Shown here: positions 4,912 to 13,805 of the stretch, piece after piece
Layout of the letters: each line of letters starts with the position of its first letter
Numbering within the stretch: position 1 is the first letter of the stretch
DNA from: Anaerohalosphaeraceae bacterium
Lineage (GTDB): Bacteria; Planctomycetota; Phycisphaerae; Sedimentisphaerales; Anaerohalosphaeraceae
Assembly (NCBI GenBank): GCA_050309605.1
Contig: JBNRMN010000085.1
Location: forward strand, 1 to 25,107
DNA: 25,107 bases
Reading direction: 5' to 3'
Notes under the pieces: model-generated
What the model was told of the DNA's origin: nothing
The model's database searches: none
What the model saw: the letters and a program-made list of their open reading frames with translations, nothing else
Position numbers and translations under genes: made by a program

Positions 4912-6699
4912 ATGGCATCCAAAAAACACATCAAGGCGGTCGGCTATGCCCGACGCAGCACCGACCTGCAGGAGCGGTCGATTCCCGACCAGAAGGCGTA
5001 CATCGAAAAATGGGCCCAGCAGAATGGCTACCGCATCCTCCGCTGGTACGTCGATGACGCCATCAGCGGCACCAGCACCAAGGGACGGATGGCGTTTGAG
5101 CGGATGATTGAGACCGCCGAGAACGGCCGGGATTTCGATACCATCCTCTGCTATGACATCAGCCGTTTTTCACGGGGCGGCACCAACGAGACGGGGTACT
5201 ATTTGCATCGGCTTGAGAAAGTAGGTGTCAACGCCATCTTCCCTGCCGACGGGATTCCTGACGGCGACGAGGGCGAACTCTTGCAAGGCGTCAAATCCTG
5301 GCAAGCCAAACAATACACGGTCAAATTGTCGCGGGATGTGATTCGGGGGTACATTTCGACGGTCACCATTCGACACAGTGCGGTGGGCGGCATTGCGCCC
5401 TATGGGTATGACAAGCAGCACCAGACCGCCAACGGTCAGATACTGCGGACGTTCCGCTGGATGGCCGATGGTCGCAAACAGGAATTCGGACCCGACGGCA
5501 AGCTGGTACGCATCTTGGAAAAGAGCGAATTTGTCAAGAAGGCCAAAAGCGATATTGTCCGGCTGGTGCCCAGCGATCCGGAGCGGGTCAAAACCGTCCA
5601 GCGGATTTTCAGCCTTTATCTGTCTGGTCGTGGAGCTGCCCATATCGCTTCTATTCTCAATCGGGATGGCATTCCGAGCTATACCGGAGTCAAGTGGGTC
5701 AGTCGCCAAATTCGAGGGGTCTTGGACAATCCCGTCTACAAAGGCGCATTGGTCTGGAACCGACGCACACTGGGGCGCTTCAATGGGGTTGACGGCGATG
5801 GCAATCTTCGTCCGAAGCGTAATTTTCTGGCGGCCAATAATCCGCAAGAAGACTGGTATCTGGTCGAGAATGTTCACGAACCGCTGGTCTCGCCCGATGA
5901 CTTTGAAAAAGCCCAGCAGGAAAAGAAAAATCGCTGCGATATGGGTGGCCGTGCCAAATCCACAGGCCGCGCCTTGTTGTCGGGATTGATTGTCTGTTCC
6001 CATTGCAACCAATCGTTTCATAAGACATACGTGGAGTGTAAATCCGGGGGTGTACCAACGCGATACTATTACTATGCCGATGCGGGGTATAAGCGGGGTG
6101 GTAAATTCCTCTGCAAGCAGACGAACGTCCCAATGGAACCACTGAACGCCTGGGTGCTGCATCACGTCAAACGCATCCTCTTGGGCGACCACAAGACCGT
6201 TGAGGAGGCGGTCGCCGCATTTATCAAAAAACTCCGGTTGGGCAAAGAGACGGCCGACGATACGGCCAACATCCAAAAAGAACTGGACGCGGTCAACCGC
6301 CGCATCAAGGCGACGCTGGCAATGCTGGCCGATCCGAGTTTTGAGGGACTGGATGAGATAAAAGCCACCCTGTCCGAATTGAAACTGCGTCGCGACCGAC
6401 TGCAGAAAAAGAATAATACCCCCAAACCCGCTGTCGCCACCTTCCGGGAATCCGATTTACGGGATTGGGCAACGGAACATATCGCCGCCATCGACCGCCT
6501 CATCGCACACCCCACCGCCACCGTCGAGGATAGAAAACTCGTCCACGCCTTTATCCACCGCATTGAAATCGACCCCTACGCCAAACAGGGAACACTTTAC
6601 CTTCACAAAGATGTGTTTGAAATCTTCAAAAACAATTTTTGCAGTTGGGGGAGTATGCAGGATTACCGCGGCGCGCTCAAGATGAAAGGCGAAGCATAA
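4912..6699 (+). CDS. Large serine recombinase (resolvase catalytic domain + recombinase domain + Zn ribbon/coiled coil)
   Basis: AVGYARRST with catalytic Ser, DDAISG, DISRFSR, PYGY, LDNPVYKG, HEPLVSPDDFEKAQ, LLSGLIVCSHC and a coiled-coil segment. Confidence 0.93.
   Translation: MASKKHIKAVGYARRSTDLQERSIPDQKAYIEKWAQQNGYRILRWYVDDAISGTSTKGRMAFERMIETAENGRDFDTILCYDISRFSRGGTNETGYYLHRLEKVGVNAIFPADGIPDGDEGELLQGVKSWQAKQYTVKLSRDVIRGYISTVTIRHSAVGGIAPYGYDKQHQTANGQILRTFRWMADGRKQEFGPDGKLVRILEKSEFVKKAKSDIVRLVPSDPERVKTVQRIFSLYLSGRGAAHIASILNRDGIPSYTGVKWVSRQIRGVLDNPVYKGALVWNRRTLGRFNGVDGDGNLRPKRNFLAANNPQEDWYLVENVHEPLVSPDDFEKAQQEKKNRCDMGGRAKSTGRALLSGLIVCSHCNQSFHKTYVECKSGGVPTRYYYYADAGYKRGGKFLCKQTNVPMEPLNAWVLHHVKRILLGDHKTVEEAVAAFIKKLRLGKETADDTANIQKELDAVNRRIKATLAMLADPSFEGLDEIKATLSELKLRRDRLQKKNNTPKPAVATFRESDLRDWATEHIAAIDRLIAHPTATVEDRKLVHAFIHRIEIDPYAKQGTLYLHKDVFEIFKNNFCSWGSMQDYRGALKMKGEA
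6655..6699 (+). pseudogene. 3' remnant of a prophage major capsid gene fused to the LSR C-terminus; putative attR junction near 6645-6660
   Basis: MQDYRGALKMKGE aligns ungapped with this window's capsid end MCDPRAAVRSDGE (6/13 identical plus V/L and R/K). It is followed, after a TA moron, by DUF2190, the gene that normally follows the capsid gene. Confidence 0.7.
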
Positions 6700-6712: not shown

Positions 6713-6979
6713 TCATTCGTAATGTGACCACATCCGCAGCACTTTGACAATACGTTCTTCGGTTAAGACCTGATAGACCAAGCGATGCTGAATGTTGATC
6801 CTGCGGGAGTACAGCCCCGTCAAATTGCCAAGCAGTTTTTCGTATGGCGGATAGGACGAAAAGGGGTCTTTTTCAATAAGTGCCAAAAGTTTTCTCACTT
6901 TCGGTGCTAATCCGGCAGCGGCGATTTTATTGGCATCTTTGACAGCGGCTTTGGTCAGGATGACTTCGTATCGGGCCAT
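6713..6979 (-). CDS. yoeB: Txe/YoeB family mRNA interferase toxin
   Basis: PPYEKLLGNLTGLYSRRINIQHRLVYQV...MWSHYE. Start at ATG 6979 (MARYEV), overlapping the antitoxin end. Confidence 0.92.
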   Translation of the reverse strand: MARYEVILTKAAVKDANKIAAAGLAPKVRKLLALIEKDPFSSYPPYEKLLGNLTGLYSRRINIQHRLVYQVLTEERIVKVLRMWSHYE

Positions 6980-7221
6980 GCAAACTCCGAAAGCGGGGTG
7001 CATTCTTCAGGTGATGCCTGACGGCCTTCAAGCAAGCTCTGGGTCATGCCCGGAATCGATTGAAGGTAAAGAGTCTCCTGAATGGCGGCGTAGTCTTCCT
7101 CTGAGATCAGGATACCTGCCCCGTTCTTGCTGGTAATGCAGATCGGCTCGTGCGACTCCTGAACCTGGCTAAGGAGCTTATAGAGCTGTTTTCGAGCGTT
7201 TGTGGCGGTAATGGTCGTCAT
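6955..7221 (-). CDS. yefM: Phd/YefM family antitoxin
   Basis: TATNARKQLYKLLSQVQESHEPICITSKNGAGILISEEDYAAIQETLYLQSIPGM; lies upstream of yoeB. Confidence 0.92.
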   Translation of the reverse strand: MTTITATNARKQLYKLLSQVQESHEPICITSKNGAGILISEEDYAAIQETLYLQSIPGMTQSLLEGRQASPEECTPLSEFAWPDTKSS

Positions 7222-7323: not shown

Positions 7324-7665
7324 ATGGCAACAGCACGATTTATTCATGACGGTGATGCGATTGATTACACCCCCGGCGCAGCGGTTAACGCCGGCGATGT
7401 GGTGGTTCAGGGCGATCTGATCGGGATTGCCAAGCTGGACATGGCCGCCGGTCAACTGGGGGCGCTGGCGGTAACGGGCGTCTTTGACGTTCCCAAGGCC
7501 ACCGGCACGGGCACCGACATTGCGGCCGGAGCCAAGCTCTATTGGAACACATCCAATCAACAGGCCACCGATGATGACGGCAGCGGCTTCAATAAGTATC
7601 TGGGCAAGGCCGTACGTGCAGCGGCCACCACAGATGCGACGGTGCGGGTACGACTGGAACAATAA
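7324..7665 (+). CDS. DUF2190 family phage head decoration/cement protein
   Basis: MATARFIHDGDAIDYTP...GDVVVQGDLIGIAKLD...GALAVTGVFDVPK...GAKLYWN...YLGKAV...VRVRL. Confidence 0.88.
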   Translation: MATARFIHDGDAIDYTPGAAVNAGDVVVQGDLIGIAKLDMAAGQLGALAVTGVFDVPKATGTGTDIAAGAKLYWNTSNQQATDDDGSGFNKYLGKAVRAAATTDATVRVRLEQ

Positions 7666-7670
7666 CGGGT

Positions 7671-7734
7671 GTGGGGCTTGGGGCGTGAGGCTTGAGGTTG
7701 ACACTGCCTCCCCCAAGCCCCACGCCTCAAGCCC
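7671..7734. repeat. Heptamer-repeat stem-loop (G[GA]GGC[TG]T units)
   Basis: GTGGGGC-TTGGGGC-GTGAGGC-TTGAGGT followed by complementary CCCAAGC-CCCACGC-CTCAAGC. Confidence 0.7.
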
Positions 7735-7742
7735 GAATTGAT

Positions 7743-8096
7743 ATGAGCAATTTACTGAACAACGGCCTGGACTGGCTGGAGCAGAAGCTCCTGGGTTTCT
7801 GCTCCAGTCCGGTCGCGTATCGGCGAAACAGCCAAACCGTAACTGTTAATGCCGTCTTCGGCAAAACCGACTATGAGGTGGACAATGAGTCGGGTCTGCG
7901 TGTGGGCAGTTTTGTGTGGGATTTTCTGATGGATGCAGAGGCTTTGGCCATGACGCCGGAGATTGGTGACATCGTGGTGGTTAACAACAAACAATTTGAA
8001 GTGATGGCTCTGTCCGGTCAGGGCTGCTGGCGCTGGACGGGGCCGAACCAAAAAACCTATCGTATCCACACTCAGGAGATTGGCAGTGACCTGTAA
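7743..8096 (+). CDS. Putative phage head-tail joining/head-closure protein
   Basis: MSNLLNNGLDWLEQK...VAYRR...FGKTDYEV...WDFL...PEIGDIV...WRW...YRIHT; lies after DUF2190. Start taken at ATG 7743. Confidence 0.6.
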   Translation: MSNLLNNGLDWLEQKLLGFCSSPVAYRRNSQTVTVNAVFGKTDYEVDNESGLRVGSFVWDFLMDAEALAMTPEIGDIVVVNNKQFEVMALSGQGCWRWTGPNQKTYRIHTQEIGSDL

Positions 8097-8322
8097 AGAA
8101 CAATATGAAAACGTCTGCAAGGACGAGTTTGCCGGGCTGCATGATAAGCTGGACAAGATGGACGAAGCCATCCGCGGCAACGGCAAGCCGGGGATTCAGG
8201 TCCGCCTGGACCGGCTGGAGCAGGAACGGCTCAGCCGCAGCAAGGTGGCGTGGTTTGTTATCGGCTGTATCACGACGTTGGCCGGTTCGATTGCCACATC
8301 GTGGATTGTGAGGACGCTATGA
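8086..8322 (+). CDS. Small phage membrane protein (coiled coil + one C-terminal TM helix)
   Basis: LHDKLDKMDEAIRGNGKPGIQVRLDRLEQ then hydrophobic VAWFVIGCITTLAGSIATSWIV. AGGAG at 8074-8078 favours the GTG start at 8086. Confidence 0.7.
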   Translation: MTCKEQYENVCKDEFAGLHDKLDKMDEAIRGNGKPGIQVRLDRLEQERLSRSKVAWFVIGCITTLAGSIATSWIVRTL

Positions 8323-8741
8323 AAATCGCCATTGATATTGCTGATGCGGTCGCTGCCGAGCTGGCGAACTTGCCTTTGACCATTCATCGCCGTGTCCTGC
8401 CGGAATACGAGTTGGCCGAACTGAAGAGCCTGACGGTTACCGTGGTGCCCAAGTCGGTCGAGATCGCCTATGTCACACGGGATGCGACCGGTTATGAGGT
8501 GGCGATAGACATCGGGATTCAGCAAAAGATCGGTAAGGACACCGATGCGGAGGTCACACGGCTAAGCGACGTTGTCAGTGAGATCGTATCGTTCCTGAAC
8601 CGTCGTTCGTTGCCGACGCTCAAGGCGCGGTTTAAGGCCCTCGTCAACGAGCCGGTCTATGCCCCGGAAATGCTCCGTGAAAAACGGCTGTTTTTGTCCG
8701 TGGTCACCGTAACCTATCTTTGTCAGGAGGTGGTACGATAA
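8319..8741 (+). CDS. Putative phage tail terminator / neck protein; last codons altered by the IS110 insertion
   Basis: ATGA overlap with the previous gene. IADAVAAEL, RRVLPEYEL, IDIGIQQK, EPVYAPE and FLSVVTVTY. The terminal VVR* is read from IS sequence. Confidence 0.6.
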   Translation: MKIAIDIADAVAAELANLPLTIHRRVLPEYELAELKSLTVTVVPKSVEIAYVTRDATGYEVAIDIGIQQKIGKDTDAEVTRLSDVVSEIVSFLNRRSLPTLKARFKALVNEPVYAPEMLREKRLFLSVVTVTYLCQEVVR

Positions 8742-8745
8742 ATCC

Positions 8746-9015
8746 TGAATGAGGTTGAGCCGATATTTTTTCTTTCTTTTTTCCCCGGTTTGGGGTGAGG
8801 GGAAAAAAGCGAAAAAATATCTTCTTGACAGCATTCGTTGGCGTTTTAACTTCGATTTTACGAATCGGAGTAGAATAGGTTTCAGGCTGCATGATTCGTA
8901 TGGGGCATCGACCTCGAACAGGAGAATATTCAGACCTGTAACCGAACCGGCCACAATAAGGCATTGCGACCTTGTATAGGAGAATGGTGGACGCCGACAG
9001 TGAAGTCTACTCCAG
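8746..9015 (+). ncRNA. Candidate IS110 bridge RNA
   Basis: Structured left end: hairpin 8762-8821, enclosing stem 8867-8874/9006-9013, and two internal arms (8878-8943, 8948-8996). The arms contain CAGGAG (equal to the left target flank) and ATAGGAG (equal to the right-end donor sequence). RNA ends are approximate. Confidence 0.6.
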
Positions 9016-9050
9016 ACAATGGAAACCATGAATGTTTAGGAGAACGCACA

Positions 9051-10064
9051 ATGAGTTATCTTGGAGTAGACTTGCACACGAACAGTTTTACGGTGTGCCA
9101 TCGGACCAAGCAGGGAAAGCAGCGTATTGCAACGTATGCCATCGACCGGATGGATCGGTTTGGCAAGACCTTGCGGAAACGGGACGACGTGGCCGTGGAA
9201 GCGACCGGCAATACGGCGTGGTTTGTCGAGCAGATTCGGTCGTCTGTCAGAAAAGTGATTGTGGTGGATCCGAACCAGTTTAAGGTGATTCGTCAGTCGG
9301 TAAAAAAGACGGACAAACACGACGCCAGGGCATTGGCGTTATTTTTGAGCAAAGGCATGTTGCCTGAGGCACGTATGAAAGAAAAAAAGAACACCCAGTT
9401 GCATTCATTGGCCGCCACGCGGGACAAGCTGGTCAAACAGCGAACGGCGTTGGCAAACAAGGTGCATAATGTCCTGAACAGTTACGGCCTGAAATGGAAA
9501 AAAGAGACACTGACAACAGAAAAGGGTCTCAAGAGTATTTTGTCCTTTGACTGGGACACAATTGTACGGGTCGAGCTGGAGGTGCTGACCGATCAGATTC
9601 GGTCGCTGACCCGAAGCATCAAGCGTTTGGATGCGGACATTGCTGAACACGGCAAGGTGCTGAAAGGCCATGAAAACCTCAGCAGTATCAAGGGTATCGG
9701 CGAAAAGTCGGCCACCGTGCTGCTCAGTGTCATCGGCAATGTGAAGGATTTTGCCAATGAAGACAAACTGGCGTCGTATTTCGGGATTGTGCCGCGCGTC
9801 AAGGATTCCAATGAGATCGTACGGCATGGGCGGATCACCAAACACGGCTCGACCCTGGCTCGCACGACATTGGTGCAATGCACCTTGTCGGCCAAACGGT
9901 ACAGTCCCTATTTGAGGCAGTATTATGAACGGATCAAGCGAACACGCGGCAGCGGCAAAGCGATCATTGCCACCGCACGGAAACTGCTTGGGATCATCTA
10001 CAAAACCCTGACACATGACTGGGTGTTTGAGGACTTCCCAAACTTTGTGATCGCAACACGTTAG
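9051..10064 (+). CDS. IS110 family transposase/recombinase (DEDD RuvC-like + Transposase_20)
   Basis: YLGVDLH, VAVEATG, KKTDKHDA, SIKGIG, YFGIVPRVKDS, GRITKHG and AIIATARKL. AGGAG RBS before ATG 9051. Confidence 0.95.
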   Translation: MSYLGVDLHTNSFTVCHRTKQGKQRIATYAIDRMDRFGKTLRKRDDVAVEATGNTAWFVEQIRSSVRKVIVVDPNQFKVIRQSVKKTDKHDARALALFLSKGMLPEARMKEKKNTQLHSLAATRDKLVKQRTALANKVHNVLNSYGLKWKKETLTTEKGLKSILSFDWDTIVRVELEVLTDQIRSLTRSIKRLDADIAEHGKVLKGHENLSSIKGIGEKSATVLLSVIGNVKDFANEDKLASYFGIVPRVKDSNEIVRHGRITKHGSTLARTTLVQCTLSAKRYSPYLRQYYERIKRTRGSGKAIIATARKLLGIIYKTLTHDWVFEDFPNFVIATR

Positions 10065-10115
10065 CGTAAAAATAATTGAAAATTGGAGTAGACTTTTATC
10101 ATAGGAGACCACCAT

Positions 10116-13100
10116 ATGTTCCATCTGACTTTACGAGTGCCTTGGCATGACCGCCAATGGGATGGTTGTGTTTGTGACAAACCGTTACAGAACTCCTTTT
10201 GCGTTGCGCTTGACCGTATCCGTGTGGAGCGAGACGAAATAGCGGAAGACAAAATCAAGGGGCAGCACTTTCGTGATTTGAGTCAGCATGAACTGCCTGC
10301 CTGTAAAGCCGAGTCCGGATACTTCATGAGTCCACACTCATGGTTACGCGAGTTTAAACATCCCTATAGCCAAAACAAAAAAGCTCAGGCAACCCACGGC
10401 AATTTGGAGAAAACGAGCATTCCTGTCCCTGAGTATTCAACATTTGCTGTTCCCTTTGCATGGATGCTGCGAAAAAATCAGAAGCAGCTTGAGGCGGGCC
10501 TCCCCAACCCACTGCCACCCGACGAGAAACCTCCCTTCGAGACTCCTTGGGTATTCGGGCGTTCCCGACAGGAGGCGATTTCTGATCTGATGTTCGGGCG
10601 GATCACGGATGATAAGTCACTGGTGTTCTTTTACACCAAGGAAGGACATCCTCTTGGCGACAATCTACCACGCCTAGTAATCGGCGTTGGGCGAGTGTTG
10701 AGAGTTGGGAAATTGTTGTACTATGAATCTTCGGGTAAGACCACCTACCCTCTGTGGGACCGCATCATCCGCCACTCAATCCGAACTGATGGCCATGACG
10801 GCTTTCTTCTGCCGTATCACGACTATCTTAAACTTACGGGAGACCCCGAGGAAGACGCTCGCAGACGTGAACTCCTTCTGGAGATAGCTGTAGCCGTCGA
10901 TTGGGGACACATGAAGGAGTTCTCGCACGCGGCAGAATTGGCTCCGCCTGGCACCGCTCTTTCTACGCTGACTCGATGCCTCGCTGCAGTGCGTCTTATC
11001 CGAAAGCACGGAATTGCGGAAGGCCCCTGGGATCGGCATGAGGAATGGCTTAATCAGCAAATCGCGGATGTGTGGCAAGATCGCGGTGCATTTCCGGGTA
11101 CTGGGTCCGCCCTTGAAGCACTAGGAATGAGGTTGGGCACTTCTCTGTACTTCGAATTGCTGGCCATGGGGGCCGTGCAACCGAGCGATAACCCGTGGAC
11201 CGTGGTAGATGCAATCTTACGCGGCAAAAAAAATCCTCCCCAGACAGCGTATTCCGGTGACATCAAAGCCATTCGCTCGACATGGGAAGGGCTATCCGCC
11301 GAACGACGAGCTCTACTGGAACTCCTTTCTCGTTTCGACTTGACTCCTGGGCAGGCACAGCGGTGGTTCGACCCAAACAAAAGAGCTAATGCTACTCATG
11401 CTCAGATAACGGACAGGGAAATACTGGAAAACCCGTATCGTACAGTGGAGGCAGACCTGGGTGATCATGAAAACGTGCCAGTAAGCATAGGCATGGTCGA
11501 CCGCGGCCTCATGCCAGATAGTTCAATTGCGGCAAAGCACCCAGTACCTGCACCTTCATCGGTTGATTCTCCATTAGATAAGCGACGTGTTCGAGCTGCC
11601 TTAGTCTCTATCCTTAAATCGGCAGCCAATGAGGGGGACGCCCTCATGGGCATTAGCGAAATTTTAGAGCGGATGCCGAAAATCGACTTGTCTCAGCCCT
11701 GCAATGTTGGAATGGATTGGTTAAATGCGAATAAAGGTTTTCTCTCAGAGGTCGTAGAGACGGTCGATATCACTGTCAAATCCGGAAAGACAGAGAAACT
11801 AATTCCATCATTACAACTCACTGAATATCGCAAACAAGAAGATAGGCTGCGTAACGTCCTTCATGCCCGCGCGGAAAGAAAAACGGTCACAGTGAAAACT
11901 AGTTGGGCGGCTTTACTCAAAAAGGCCATTCAAGATGCTGGAGGGGCATACGACCCAAAGAATCCCCGTCACACCGCTGCACTTAAAGAGCAGACAGACG
12001 CACTGGCCTGCATCATTGATAGAAAGCTGACCGTCCTGACCGGAAAAGCCGGTACAGGCAAGACATCTGTGCTGGGTGCATTGTTGCTTTGCGATGATAT
12101 TATCAAGGACGGCATTCTGTTATTAGCCCCGACGGGTAAAGCACGTGTGCGACTTGGTCGCGCTACAAACGCTGAAGCAATGACGGTTGCCCAGTTCTTG
12201 AACAGTCTCGGACGGTATGATGGAGTCAGGCAAAAACCTCTGCTTGTCGGCAAGGACAAGTACAGGAAGGAGAAAACAGTTGTTATTGATGAAGCATCGA
12301 TGCTGACAATGGATACCCTCTTGGCCGTATTGGAAGCATTAGACTTGGCACATGTCCAGCGACTGATCCTTGTTGGCGATCCCAATCAATTACCACCCAT
12401 TGGGGTCGGAAGACCCTTTGCGGATTTAGTTGCTAGTTTTGAAAGTGCATTGGCGTCAAATGACCCTTTAATTCAGAATCGCGGATTAGCAATGGCTCGT
12501 CTATCTGTTGAAGTGCGAGCTGTGGCTGGTGCACCTTCTGGCACGCTTCGCCTGGCATCGTGGTTCACACGCGAGCCACAAATGGTGGATGCAGACCGCA
12601 TTCTAAGCGACATAGAAATGAATGGGGCTTTTAATGATTTAGAACTCTGTTTTTGGAAAACTCCCGAGGAACTTCGCTCAAGATTCATGGAGCAATTCAA
12701 GAAGCAATTTGGGATAAATAATGAGAAGGACGTTGATAATTTTAACCTCGCTTTGGGTTTCAACCCTGAAGGATGGATGCCATTTGATGCCCCAGAAGGT
12801 GCAGAGAACTTCCAGATACTCTCTCCTGTGCGTATGCACCCATACGGTGTGCGTGAGATCAACAGATGGGTACAGCGATCCTTTCGAATGGATAAGCTGC
12901 AAAAGGCGAGAGCATTTCGGGGAACAAGTCTGGGTGATGAGGAAATTGTCGTTAGCGATAAAGTTATTCAGCTCGATAACGGAACCAGATATGCTTATGA
13001 CGGAAATGGCCAATTGGAAGTATATCTTGCCAACGGAGAAATCGGAGTTGTGTGCCCTGGCAAGGCAGGATGGGTAAATGTGGTTTTCAGCGGAAGAAAG

Positions 13101-13805
13101 AATATTAGGGTCGGATACAGCAAGCGAGATTTTCCACAAGGAAGTGGACCATTGGAACTTGCATACGCGCTTACTGTTCATAAGGCGCAGGGCAGTGAAT
13201 TCAAGAAGGTGTTTGTTGTTATCCCCAGAAAATGTAGACCCTTGTCCAGAGAACTGCTTTATACTGCACTGACAAGGTCCCGCGAGAAGCTCGTTCTATT
13301 AATCGAAGGGAATGATGGCTCTTGTTTGTATGATTTTTCTCGACCGGAAAAATCTGAAACTGCAAGAAGAAACACCAACCTGTTTACGAGTGCTGTCCGT
13401 GATCAAGCAGAGACAGTCCCTTACGTTGAACATCTCATACACCGTACCGAGAAGGGGCATATGGTTCGCAGCAAATCGGAACTTGTCATTGCGAATATTC
13501 TATTCCACATAGAAGGCCTGCGTGACTACGAATATGAGCGAGTTTACGAGGGAATCACTGTACCCGGGAAGATGCGTCCCGATTTTTCTTGGGTCACTCC
13601 CGCAGGTGACCTACTGATCTGGGAACATTTAGGGATGTTGGGACGCGACGACTATCGAATAGCTTGGGAATGGAAAAAGGATTGGTATGAGAAGAATTGT
13701 TTTCAAGTCGGTAAGAATCTGTTTACAACACAAGAGGATAATGGTGGCAGACTTAATTCTCAAGAAATCATATCTGTTGCAAGGATAATAGAAAAAATTC
13801 TTTAA
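10116..13805 (+). CDS. Large RecD-like SF1B helicase with long N-terminal extension and C-terminal PD-(D/E)XK-like nuclease domain
   Basis: Helicase motifs GKAGTGKT, LLAPTGKA, VIDEASM, LVGDPNQLPPIG, LANGEIG, AYALTVHKAQGSEF and LLYTALTR. C-terminal VRSKSELVIAN...YEYE...PDF...IWEHLGM. Confidence 0.88.
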   Translation: MFHLTLRVPWHDRQWDGCVCDKPLQNSFCVALDRIRVERDEIAEDKIKGQHFRDLSQHELPACKAESGYFMSPHSWLREFKHPYSQNKKAQATHGNLEKTSIPVPEYSTFAVPFAWMLRKNQKQLEAGLPNPLPPDEKPPFETPWVFGRSRQEAISDLMFGRITDDKSLVFFYTKEGHPLGDNLPRLVIGVGRVLRVGKLLYYESSGKTTYPLWDRIIRHSIRTDGHDGFLLPYHDYLKLTGDPEEDARRRELLLEIAVAVDWGHMKEFSHAAELAPPGTALSTLTRCLAAVRLIRKHGIAEGPWDRHEEWLNQQIADVWQDRGAFPGTGSALEALGMRLGTSLYFELLAMGAVQPSDNPWTVVDAILRGKKNPPQTAYSGDIKAIRSTWEGLSAERRALLELLSRFDLTPGQAQRWFDPNKRANATHAQITDREILENPYRTVEADLGDHENVPVSIGMVDRGLMPDSSIAAKHPVPAPSSVDSPLDKRRVRAALVSILKSAANEGDALMGISEILERMPKIDLSQPCNVGMDWLNANKGFLSEVVETVDITVKSGKTEKLIPSLQLTEYRKQEDRLRNVLHARAERKTVTVKTSWAALLKKAIQDAGGAYDPKNPRHTAALKEQTDALACIIDRKLTVLTGKAGTGKTSVLGALLLCDDIIKDGILLLAPTGKARVRLGRATNAEAMTVAQFLNSLGRYDGVRQKPLLVGKDKYRKEKTVVIDEASMLTMDTLLAVLEALDLAHVQRLILVGDPNQLPPIGVGRPFADLVASFESALASNDPLIQNRGLAMARLSVEVRAVAGAPSGTLRLASWFTREPQMVDADRILSDIEMNGAFNDLELCFWKTPEELRSRFMEQFKKQFGINNEKDVDNFNLALGFNPEGWMPFDAPEGAENFQILSPVRMHPYGVREINRWVQRSFRMDKLQKARAFRGTSLGDEEIVVSDKVIQLDNGTRYAYDGNGQLEVYLANGEIGVVCPGKAGWVNVVFSGRKNIRVGYSKRDFPQGSGPLELAYALTVHKAQGSEFKKVFVVIPRKCRPLSRELLYTALTRSREKLVLLIEGNDGSCLYDFSRPEKSETARRNTNLFTSAVRDQAETVPYVEHLIHRTEKGHMVRSKSELVIANILFHIEGLRDYEYERVYEGITVPGKMRPDFSWVTPAGDLLIWEHLGMLGRDDYRIAWEWKKDWYEKNCFQVGKNLFTTQEDNGGRLNSQEIISVARIIEKIL

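Follow-up and report, generated by a model that had tools for sequence, protein, structure and literature searches.

What does the non-coding left end of an insertion sequence encode? The question is raised by a stretch of 25,107 nucleotides (nt) from an Anaerohalosphaeraceae bacterium (assembly GCA_050309605.1, contig JBNRMN010000085.1, positions 1 to 25,107 of the forward strand; hereafter the window), in which an IS110-family element carries such an end ahead of its transposase gene. We have concluded that the left non-coding end of this element (8730-10107) very probably encodes an IS110-family bridge RNA with guides, whose core lies at 8865-9016. The ends of the element, the fold of the RNA, the covariation between guides and DNA, and the preference for a certain kind of insertion site are directly observed. 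A first-pass annotation of the window alone had already read this region as a bridge RNA, and the comparative data, i.e., 97 matches to a covariance model (R1) and the guide covariation, agree with it.

The extent of the element, its protein and its subterminal repeat are as follows.

8730-10107, + strand: whole IS110-family insertion sequence, delimited by ends shared among multiple copies and within the close clade
9051-10064, + strand: transposase / bridge recombinase, 337 aa, identified by Pfam and NCBIfam matches
10095-10102, + strand: right copy of the subterminal inverted repeat, TTTATCAT; its partner at 8735-8742 is ACGATAAA, with 7 of 8 positions matching

The product of 9051-10064 matches the Pfam families DEDD_Tnp_IS110 (3e-14) and Transposase_20 (5e-22), as well as the NCBIfam model NF033542, 'IS110 family RNA-guided transposase', at 235.6 bits (cut-off 140). 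Relatives of this transposase were collected from species-representative genomes (81 relatives, of which 80 loci were kept) and from metagenomes (at least 245 among the 600 pattern matches listed, with 80 loci kept). Four copies in one genome (L003-L006) are exactly identical from GTGGTACG... to ...CATAGGAG and unrelated beyond, their shared stretch being bounded by GTGGTACGATAAA at the start and TTTTATCATAGGAG at the finish. The same ends occur in 42 loci of the close clade, where the left flank ends with GGAG in 41 cases and with GAAG in one (L121). Therefore, the window element can be placed at 8730-10107; its boundary is ambiguous inside the common AGGAG, with the core AG present at both 8728-8729 and 10106-10107. 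This AG terminates 49 of 50 left flanks and every right end, that is, it is the core dinucleotide common to target and donor. Between the subterminal repeats of joined ends stand AGGAG from the right end and GTGGT from the left end, and the layout of repeat-AGGAG followed by 5 nt-repeat recurs in the spirochaete-type clade (TTTTTAT / ATAAAAA).

The window element is single-copy in its own genome. A further copy was found on a DNA contig of run X4, with 14 differences across 8724-10107 and with different flanking DNA, i.e., ...AATCAAAA then CAGGAG on the left, and A then TACTATTATGG on the right. This copy is inserted directly after AACAGGAG, and of its 14 differences 13 were itemised, none of these inside 8917-8926. 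An exact empty site was not recovered. The right flank (10108-10900) had no match in 40 related genomes; left-end DNA was matched in 4 of 60 relatives. Separately, two X4 contigs with a homologue of the upstream gene (records 17 and 18) cover 8604-8717 with 15-16 differences in 114 bases and diverge into unrelated sequence past 8717, that is, they represent a related locus that lacks the element, and no exact empty site.

The RNA core is 152 nt long and consists of an outer stem around two arms.

8865-9016, + strand: probable bridge RNA core, outer stem around target arm and donor arm, scored by covariance model R1 at 161.6 bits
8867-8874, + strand: 5' strand of the outer stem, GGAGUAGA (= GGAGTAGA), pairing with 9006-9013
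9006-9013, + strand: 3' strand of the outer stem, UCUACUCC (= TCTACTCC), pairing with 8867-8874
8878-8943, + strand: arm 1, the probable target-binding loop, with a basal stem of 8878-8889 with 8931-8943 and a distal hairpin at 8901-8916
8948-8996, + strand: arm 2, the probable donor-binding loop, with a distal hairpin at 8957-8974

The first-pass annotation had listed the arm stems, CAGGAG, ATAGGAG and the enclosing stem, and all of these motifs are found where it had placed them. It had also suggested a covariance model from homologous left ends. In the window's own genome, the sole match to this model (R1) is 8865-9016. Over 100 sources (284,567 bases) it finds 97 matches, every one upstream of a transposase homologue, and these reach families with a protein identity of only 32-37% (records labelled Spirochaetota, Syntrophales, Desulfobacterales and Gracilibacteria). 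When 150 further genomes from the phylum were sampled, R1 matched one of them, which indicates patchiness and no more. In the 97 matches, 93.7% of the cells are paired, and compensatory changes are seen in 30 of 36 pairs. The alignment of these matches is fitted to R1 itself, whereas a 30-row MAFFT alignment of relatives is independent of the model. On the latter, the structure has 95.1% of cells paired, compared with 27.6-43.0% in slid controls; six pairs show double changes, and the covariation score is reached by none of 500 shuffles. The single sequence 8746-9050 also folds stably, with a minimum free energy (MFE) of -104.3 kcal/mol (z -4.76, 0/100 shuffles equally stable).

Covariation is seen in the outer stem, the arm-1 stem and both distal hairpins, and RNAalifold independently recovers the same helices. 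The outer stem, which had been described as enclosing both arms, is 97.4% paired in the R1 matches, with compensatory changes in all seven modelled pairs; a U-A to C-G change in it appears in 4 of the 30 MAFFT rows. In arm 1, GGTTTCAGG (8878-8886) pairs with CCTGTAACC (8935-8943), and in arm 2, CGGCCAC (8948-8954) pairs with GTGGACGCCG (8987-8996). The basal stem of arm 1 shows double changes in 10 of 12 pairs among the R1 matches. Both distal hairpins are 99.8% paired there, and double changes occur in 4 of 5 pairs for that of arm 2. The two arms are homologous. In each, a basal stem leads to the guide strand on the 5' side, then to the conserved distal hairpin (GRGG-CAUUGCGA-CCYC type) and the guide strand on the 3' side, which starts with G, so that the CAUUGCGA-type loop hairpin precedes G, a guide ending with AGGAG, two variable bases and U.

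Natural variants of this scaffold also exist. The derivatives L011:1185-1501 and L089, from the same assembly as L010, are devoid of the whole target arm and would give a donor-arm-only RNA, as their sequence leaps from the arm-1 hairpin loop into the homologous arm-2 loop (GGCATTG...GACC). The left flank of the derivative, TGAAGGAG, agrees with the guide that its intact sister copy, L010, carries. Extra hairpins are present in the distal loops of L111 and L124 (arm 2, about 40 nt) and of L153 (arm 1, shorter), and therefore the distal loops tolerate insertions.

The segments proposed to read DNA are the following.

8918-8924, + strand: left target guide ACAGGAG, same sense as left flank and core, its last two bases facing the core AG
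8893-8899, + strand: candidate right target guide in the 5' strand of arm 1, antisense to right flank +7..+1
8925-8926, + strand: AA, immediately 3' of the left target guide, where a handshake guide would stand; the left end has GT
8976-8982, + strand: left donor guide AUAGGAG, identical in 7 of 7 positions to the right end 10101-10107
8951-8954, + strand: right donor guide CCAC, complementary to the left-end start GTGG (8730-8733)

For the left target guide, the 8 bases past the arm-1 hairpin were compared with the final 8 bases of the flank at 85 loci, yielding 50 unique guide/flank pairs. The other 12 of the 97 R1 matches were omitted because the left end was not found, the flank was under 10 bases long, or the locus had lost arm 1 (L011) or was truncated (L038). 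Guide and flank are equal at position -7 in 39 of 50 pairs, at -6 in 48 and at -5 in all 50, while the shuffle means are 17.2, 34.2 and 44.3; position -8 has no signal (11/50 unique pairs). Therefore, the left target guide is 7 nt long (8918-8924). It has the same sense as the left flank and core and would thus pair with the bottom strand; in the window, CAGGAG at 8919-8924 is identical to 8724-8729. This comparison is the guide-target covariation check that had been proposed along with the bridge RNA. Together with the donor side described below, it agrees with the earlier assignment of arm 1 to the target and arm 2 to the donor, and with left-hand guides on the 3' sides of the loops.

Most targets in the family resemble Shine-Dalgarno (SD) sites, as detailed below. 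Among distant relatives with non-SD targets, the RNA equals the left junction over 13-14 nt (L166, TCGATATTCAGAT; L150, CTCGCGGGGGAGAT). The target of L166 (at about 700-800) is ...TCGATATTCAG and that of L150 is ...CTCGCGGGGGAG; both have departed from SD sites, and their guides match. The donor guide of L166, GATAGGAG, has only AG in common with its target guide, which fixes the core as AG. L166 and L150 show natural reprogramming of every guide position except the core AG.

On the donor side, every locus parsed has ATAGGAG unchanged, in its RNA as well as at its right end. The right donor guide, on the other strand of arm 2, complements left-end positions 2, 3 and 4 in 43, 45 and 40 of 48 combinations (shuffle means 17.2, 31.7 and 28.0), and across clades the pairs of left end and guide are GTGG/CCAC, ACGG/CCGU and GAATG/CAUUC. 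Left-end position 1 is not significant (20/48 unique combinations). The bases past the donor guide show no signal against the right flank either, with 25/79 and 23/79 versus 26.0 and 23.0.

The right-hand guides had been left unassigned in the first-pass annotation. That of the donor arm is now located at 8951-8954, while that of the target arm, at about 8893-8899, is weak in this clade. We have compared the hypervariable 5' strand of arm 1 with the right flanks of 79 loci in 12 registers, using within-clade permutation, and one register stands out (z 5.33), in which the last-but-one variable base is opposite +1. Most of this signal is contributed by the middle clade (z 5.55, 31 loci); the spirochaete-type clade gives z 1.34 (12 loci). 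A longest-match test within the close clade gives p 0.0125 for the antisense and p 0.17 for the sense orientation. Thus the candidate right target guide appears to complement the right flank across the family, and only weakly in the clade of the window. As for the two bases after the left target guide, the second is the same as left-end position 2 in 33 of 48 combinations (shuffle mean 13.9), and the first has no signal (29/48 versus 30.0).

The insertion sites follow a preference. In 69 of 78 distinct right flanks, the start codon of an open frame lies 5-10 nt beyond the end of the element, with 6 and 7 nt as the commonest spacings; therefore, the family inserts into SD sites co-directionally with the gene. 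The window insertion is located in the SD site of a helicase gene starting at 10116, and the right end of the element, ...ATAGGAG, leaves AGGAG at the same spacing before the downstream start codon. From these observations a mechanism may be proposed. Arm 1 would read the target DNA, arm 2 would read the donor, i.e., the joined ends of the excised element, and the recombinase, by analogy with IS621, would exchange strands at the shared AG; its binding to the RNA and its chemistry are presumed in this proposal. As the guides spell SD sequences, the element would land in ribosome-binding sites in the same direction as the downstream gene, and its own end ...ATAGGAG would restore AGGAG before the start codon as a putative ribosome-binding site.

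One spirochaete assembly holds 15 copies (L052-L066). There, 9 of 15 left flanks are TATAGGAG, identical to the element's own right end and with one mismatch to its guide UUUAGGAG, and a similar palindrome (GCATCCATGC type) lies immediately upstream in 5 of 15 flanks.

On the other hand, several observations weigh against a guide-bearing bridge RNA in the window. The left flank TCAGGAG and the left target guide agree at 6 positions rather than at all 7. In the clade of the window element, the right target guide does not reach significance (z 1.69, 36 loci), a fixed-register scan of the close clade (33 loci) gives a best uncorrected p of 0.023, and the candidate matches the window flank at 3 of 7 positions (+1, +2, +4) and the X4 flank at 1 of 7 (+1). 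The handshake-like bases are mismatched in the window element (AA versus GT). The left donor guide cannot be tested by covariation because it is invariant, and its identity with the right end is all that it offers. The base of arm 2 pairs poorly (75.7% in the 30-row MAFFT alignment, and 71.5% for the four basal pairs in the 97 R1 matches), and RNAalifold draws it differently. Since the relatives are not independent, the shuffle p-values overstate the significance. An Rfam scan of 8400-10400 returned no matching family and only three chance-level matches (E 0.31-0.8). As to expression, the Logan RNA-library contigs over 8753-8918 and 8810-8960 derive from relatives that differ at 7 to 14 of about 150-165 bases; moreover, RNA libraries can contain DNA, and one such contig continues into flanking DNA.

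Other explanations should be weighed against the same data. The leader might be a mere regulatory 5' untranslated region of the transposase mRNA, in which the AGGAG loops are SD-like but have no guide role and match the flanks by chance. AGGAG is indeed frequent as a motif, and 9003-9014 could pair with the coding start at 9062-9073 and enclose the ribosome-binding site. However, the variable guide positions follow the flanks (39/50 and 48/50), the non-SD targets of L166 and L150 are matched across 13-14 nt, changes in the 5' strand of arm 2 go together with changes at the start of the left end, and the GGAGCAGA subclade no longer has the pairing with the coding start, all of which make this explanation very improbable. 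Still harder to accept is that the order is the canonical one of IS621, with left guides on the 5' sides, and that their 3' placement here results from a wrong fold or wrong arm borders. What speaks for it is that IS621 is the best-studied model and that the base of arm 2 is uncertain; yet the helices that fix the sides, i.e., the arm-1 stem and both distal hairpins, are the best supported (93.0-99.8% paired, with many double changes) and are among those recovered independently by RNAalifold. In addition, the G-U pairs are consistent with the + strand only, and the segment of left flank and core comes after the hairpin in all loci.

It could also be argued that only arm 1 carries guides, as in a short seekRNA, while arm 2 is a protein-binding scaffold and the protein itself reads the ends through the subterminal repeats. 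AUAGGAG and the right end are invariant, so pairing there has no covariation test, an 8-bp subterminal inverted repeat flanks the ends, and short RNAs are sufficient for some elements, according to Siddiquee et al. 2024 (PMC11187229). Against this, left-end positions 2-4 change from clade to clade together with the 5' strand of arm 2, arm 2 is kept in 97 of 97 R1 matches, and the natural derivative L011 retains arm 2 without arm 1. We thus consider the restriction of guides to arm 1 unlikely, and continue with a bridge RNA that has guides in both arms.

How does this RNA compare with known ones? In IS621, the target loop runs through a stem, the left guide (A50-U58), a stem-loop, the right guide (G77-G80) and handshake bases; the left guides bind the bottom strand, the right guides the top strand, and the core is CT (PMC11208158, PMC11208160). 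Like in IS621, the RNA here comes from the left end, upstream of a DEDD/Tnp recombinase, and has two homologous loops for target and donor, each with a bottom-strand and a top-strand guide and with a shared 2-nt core; two bases past the post-hairpin guide track the other DNA, as IS621 handshake guides do. Unlike in IS621, the left guides here come after the hairpin and the right guides before it, and the core on the RNA-sense strand is AG, the reverse complement of CT. Therefore, the guide module is mirror-inverted versus IS621 relative to the direction of transcription; on the opposite DNA strand, all guides and the handshake-like bases occupy the exact IS621 places. Further differences are that the outer stem here encloses both arms, that the post-hairpin guide is long and dominant (7 nt or more), and that the subterminal repeats are 8 bp, compared with 2-3 bp in IS621. 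The first-pass annotation had spoken of a larger variant, but the core of 152 nt is shorter than the 177-nt IS621 bridge RNA (Durrant et al. 2024, PMC11208160), and the excess is the 5' leader, a putative part of the RNA.

It had also regarded the 3'-side guides as a variant architecture. This strand order is in fact already reported for IS1111-type seekRNAs, in which the segment complementary to the top strand precedes the one matching the bottom strand, opposite to the IS110 type (Siddiquee et al. 2024, PMC11187229). The elements of the IS1111 group have subterminal inverted repeats of 7-17 bp and an RNA in the right end, downstream of the transposase (PMC11208158, PMC11208160, PMC11187229), and their ends reach 7 and 3 bases past the repeats (PMC11187229). 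The element here shares with this type (ISEc11, ISKpn4, ISPa11) the top-strand complement 5' of the bottom-strand match, repeats of at least 7 bp and, if the core is counted on the left, ends 7 and 3 bases beyond the repeats. Unlike the IS1111 type, its RNA lies upstream and not downstream of the transposase; PMC11187229 mentions exceptions with an upstream non-coding region. At the protein level, the clues to a subgroup are a 26% identity with the ISEc11 transposase and an alignment with the IS621 transposase (8wt6, 1.5e-11) that is confined to the C-terminal domain. R1 had no match below E 0.2 in ISEc11 (best E 3.2), IS5708 and a Klebsiella IS110 element. The new RNA belongs to an already known kind, with strand order and ends as in IS1111 and position as in IS110. 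A 2026 preprint (10.64898/2026.10.21.760802) describes many bridge-RNA variants with deviating structures.

The site preference has a precedent as well. IS900, an IS110-family element of Mycobacterium avium subsp. paratuberculosis, has the target motif CATGNNNNNNTCTCCTT (PMC8141618). This motif is the reverse complement of AAGGAGA-N6-CATG, an SD site plus start codon, i.e., the same kind of site as here, and therefore SD targeting is already known in the IS110 family. IS900 lies antisense to its target gene, and the window family is co-directional in 69 of 78 cases. Among the papers that a literature search listed, none paired 'IS900' with 'bridge RNA', and those joining 'bridge RNA' with a ribosome-binding-site term concerned other subjects, none of the queries being specific to bridge RNAs with SD-type guides.

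Beyond the window, one may propose a widespread lineage of bridge recombinases with a guide module mirror-inverted versus IS621 and upstream of the transposase, intermediate between IS110 and IS1111, which homes co-directionally to SD sites, rebuilds the ribosome-binding site and is possibly expressed by host read-through. We hold the arguments for and against this wider proposal to be evenly balanced. Records of the lineage are labelled Planctomycetota, Alphaproteobacteria, Nitrospira, Acidobacteria, Spirochaetota, Desulfobacterales/Syntrophales and Gracilibacteria. As programmable guides of recombination, bridge RNAs currently attract interest in engineering, and here a compact 152-nt scaffold is kept from Planctomycetota to Spirochaetota, with natural reprogramming visible at defined positions. 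The opposite guide order combined with an upstream RNA provides a natural test of whether the handedness of the loops matters to the synaptic complex, and the family may connect the IS110 and IS1111 layouts. As AGGAG is left before the downstream gene in 69 of 78 insertions, the insertions could be mild; such elements may be mistaken for operon leaders during annotation.

How the RNA is made brings in further features around the core.

8762-8821, + strand: long A/U-rich leader hairpin, a possible 5' stem-loop, in the MFE fold of 8746-9050 and kept in the close clade
8734-8739, + strand: TACGAT, a -10-like hexamer after TGG, with GGTACGAT invariant in 36 aligned left ends
10089-10094, + strand: TAGACT, a -35-like hexamer in the right end, in register with TTGACA, TTGACT and TTGCAA of related clades

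The A/U-rich hairpin had been pointed out earlier, and it is present in the MFE fold. Its covariation cannot be distinguished from that of slid controls (67.2% versus 50.7-62.0%), and other clades bear different hairpins at this place, i.e., it is clade-specific; it may correspond to the 5' stem-loop of IS621.

If the two ends are joined, the best combination of -35 and -10 hexamers is spaced 17 bp in most of 65 distinct end pairs, as counted with no shuffle control. TAGACT/TACGAT is found in 19 of these 65, other clades keep this spacing with different hexamers, and 56 pairs score 8-9 of 12. We therefore propose, from these hexamers, that TAGACT and TGG-TACGAT may form a promoter at the circle junction, with an RNA start near 8746, the start given in the first-pass annotation. 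Junction promoters are described for IS621 and ISEc21 in PMC11208158, PMC11208160 and PMC11187229. Owing to the co-directional insertion, read-through from host genes is also a possible source of the RNA, and the core is probably transcribed by one of these two routes. A sigma-70 and terminator scan of 8500-10300 gave 0 promoter-like sites. An internal candidate promoter, TTGACA-N16-TAACTT, was rejected, since it is confined to the nearest subclade.

The 3' strand of the outer stem has additional complementarity. AAGTCTACTCCA (9003-9014) is the exact reverse complement of 10084-10095 and is also complementary to 9062-9073. The earlier observation of a match to the right-end -35 region is thus real and exact, but it lacks covariation: in the GGAGCAGA subclade, pairing of 9003-9014 with the right end or the coding start shows no compensatory change. 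The complementarity and the direct repeat described next are kept in the clades with the outer stem GGAGUAGA. This 13-nt direct repeat, TTGGAGTAGACTT, occurs at the transposase coding start (9061-9073) and in the right end (10083-10095), where it overlaps the -35-like hexamer.

The RNA core finishes 35 nt ahead of the transposase start codon, and the right end lies 43 nt past its stop codon. The surroundings of the element are phage-like. Upstream, there are a large serine recombinase at 4912-6699 and, on the minus strand, a YoeB-like toxin (6713-7003) and a Phd/YefM antitoxin (6955-7221), followed by a head decoration/cement protein (7324-7665) and a head-tail joining protein (7692-8096). The gene whose SD site took the insertion encodes a 1229-aa AAA_30/UvrD_C_2 helicase (10116-13805). 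On the other side, the insertion alters the C-terminus of the frame 8250-8741 (no family match) by replacing its final codons, and the stop codon TAA of this frame, at 8739-8741, falls within the left end of the element.

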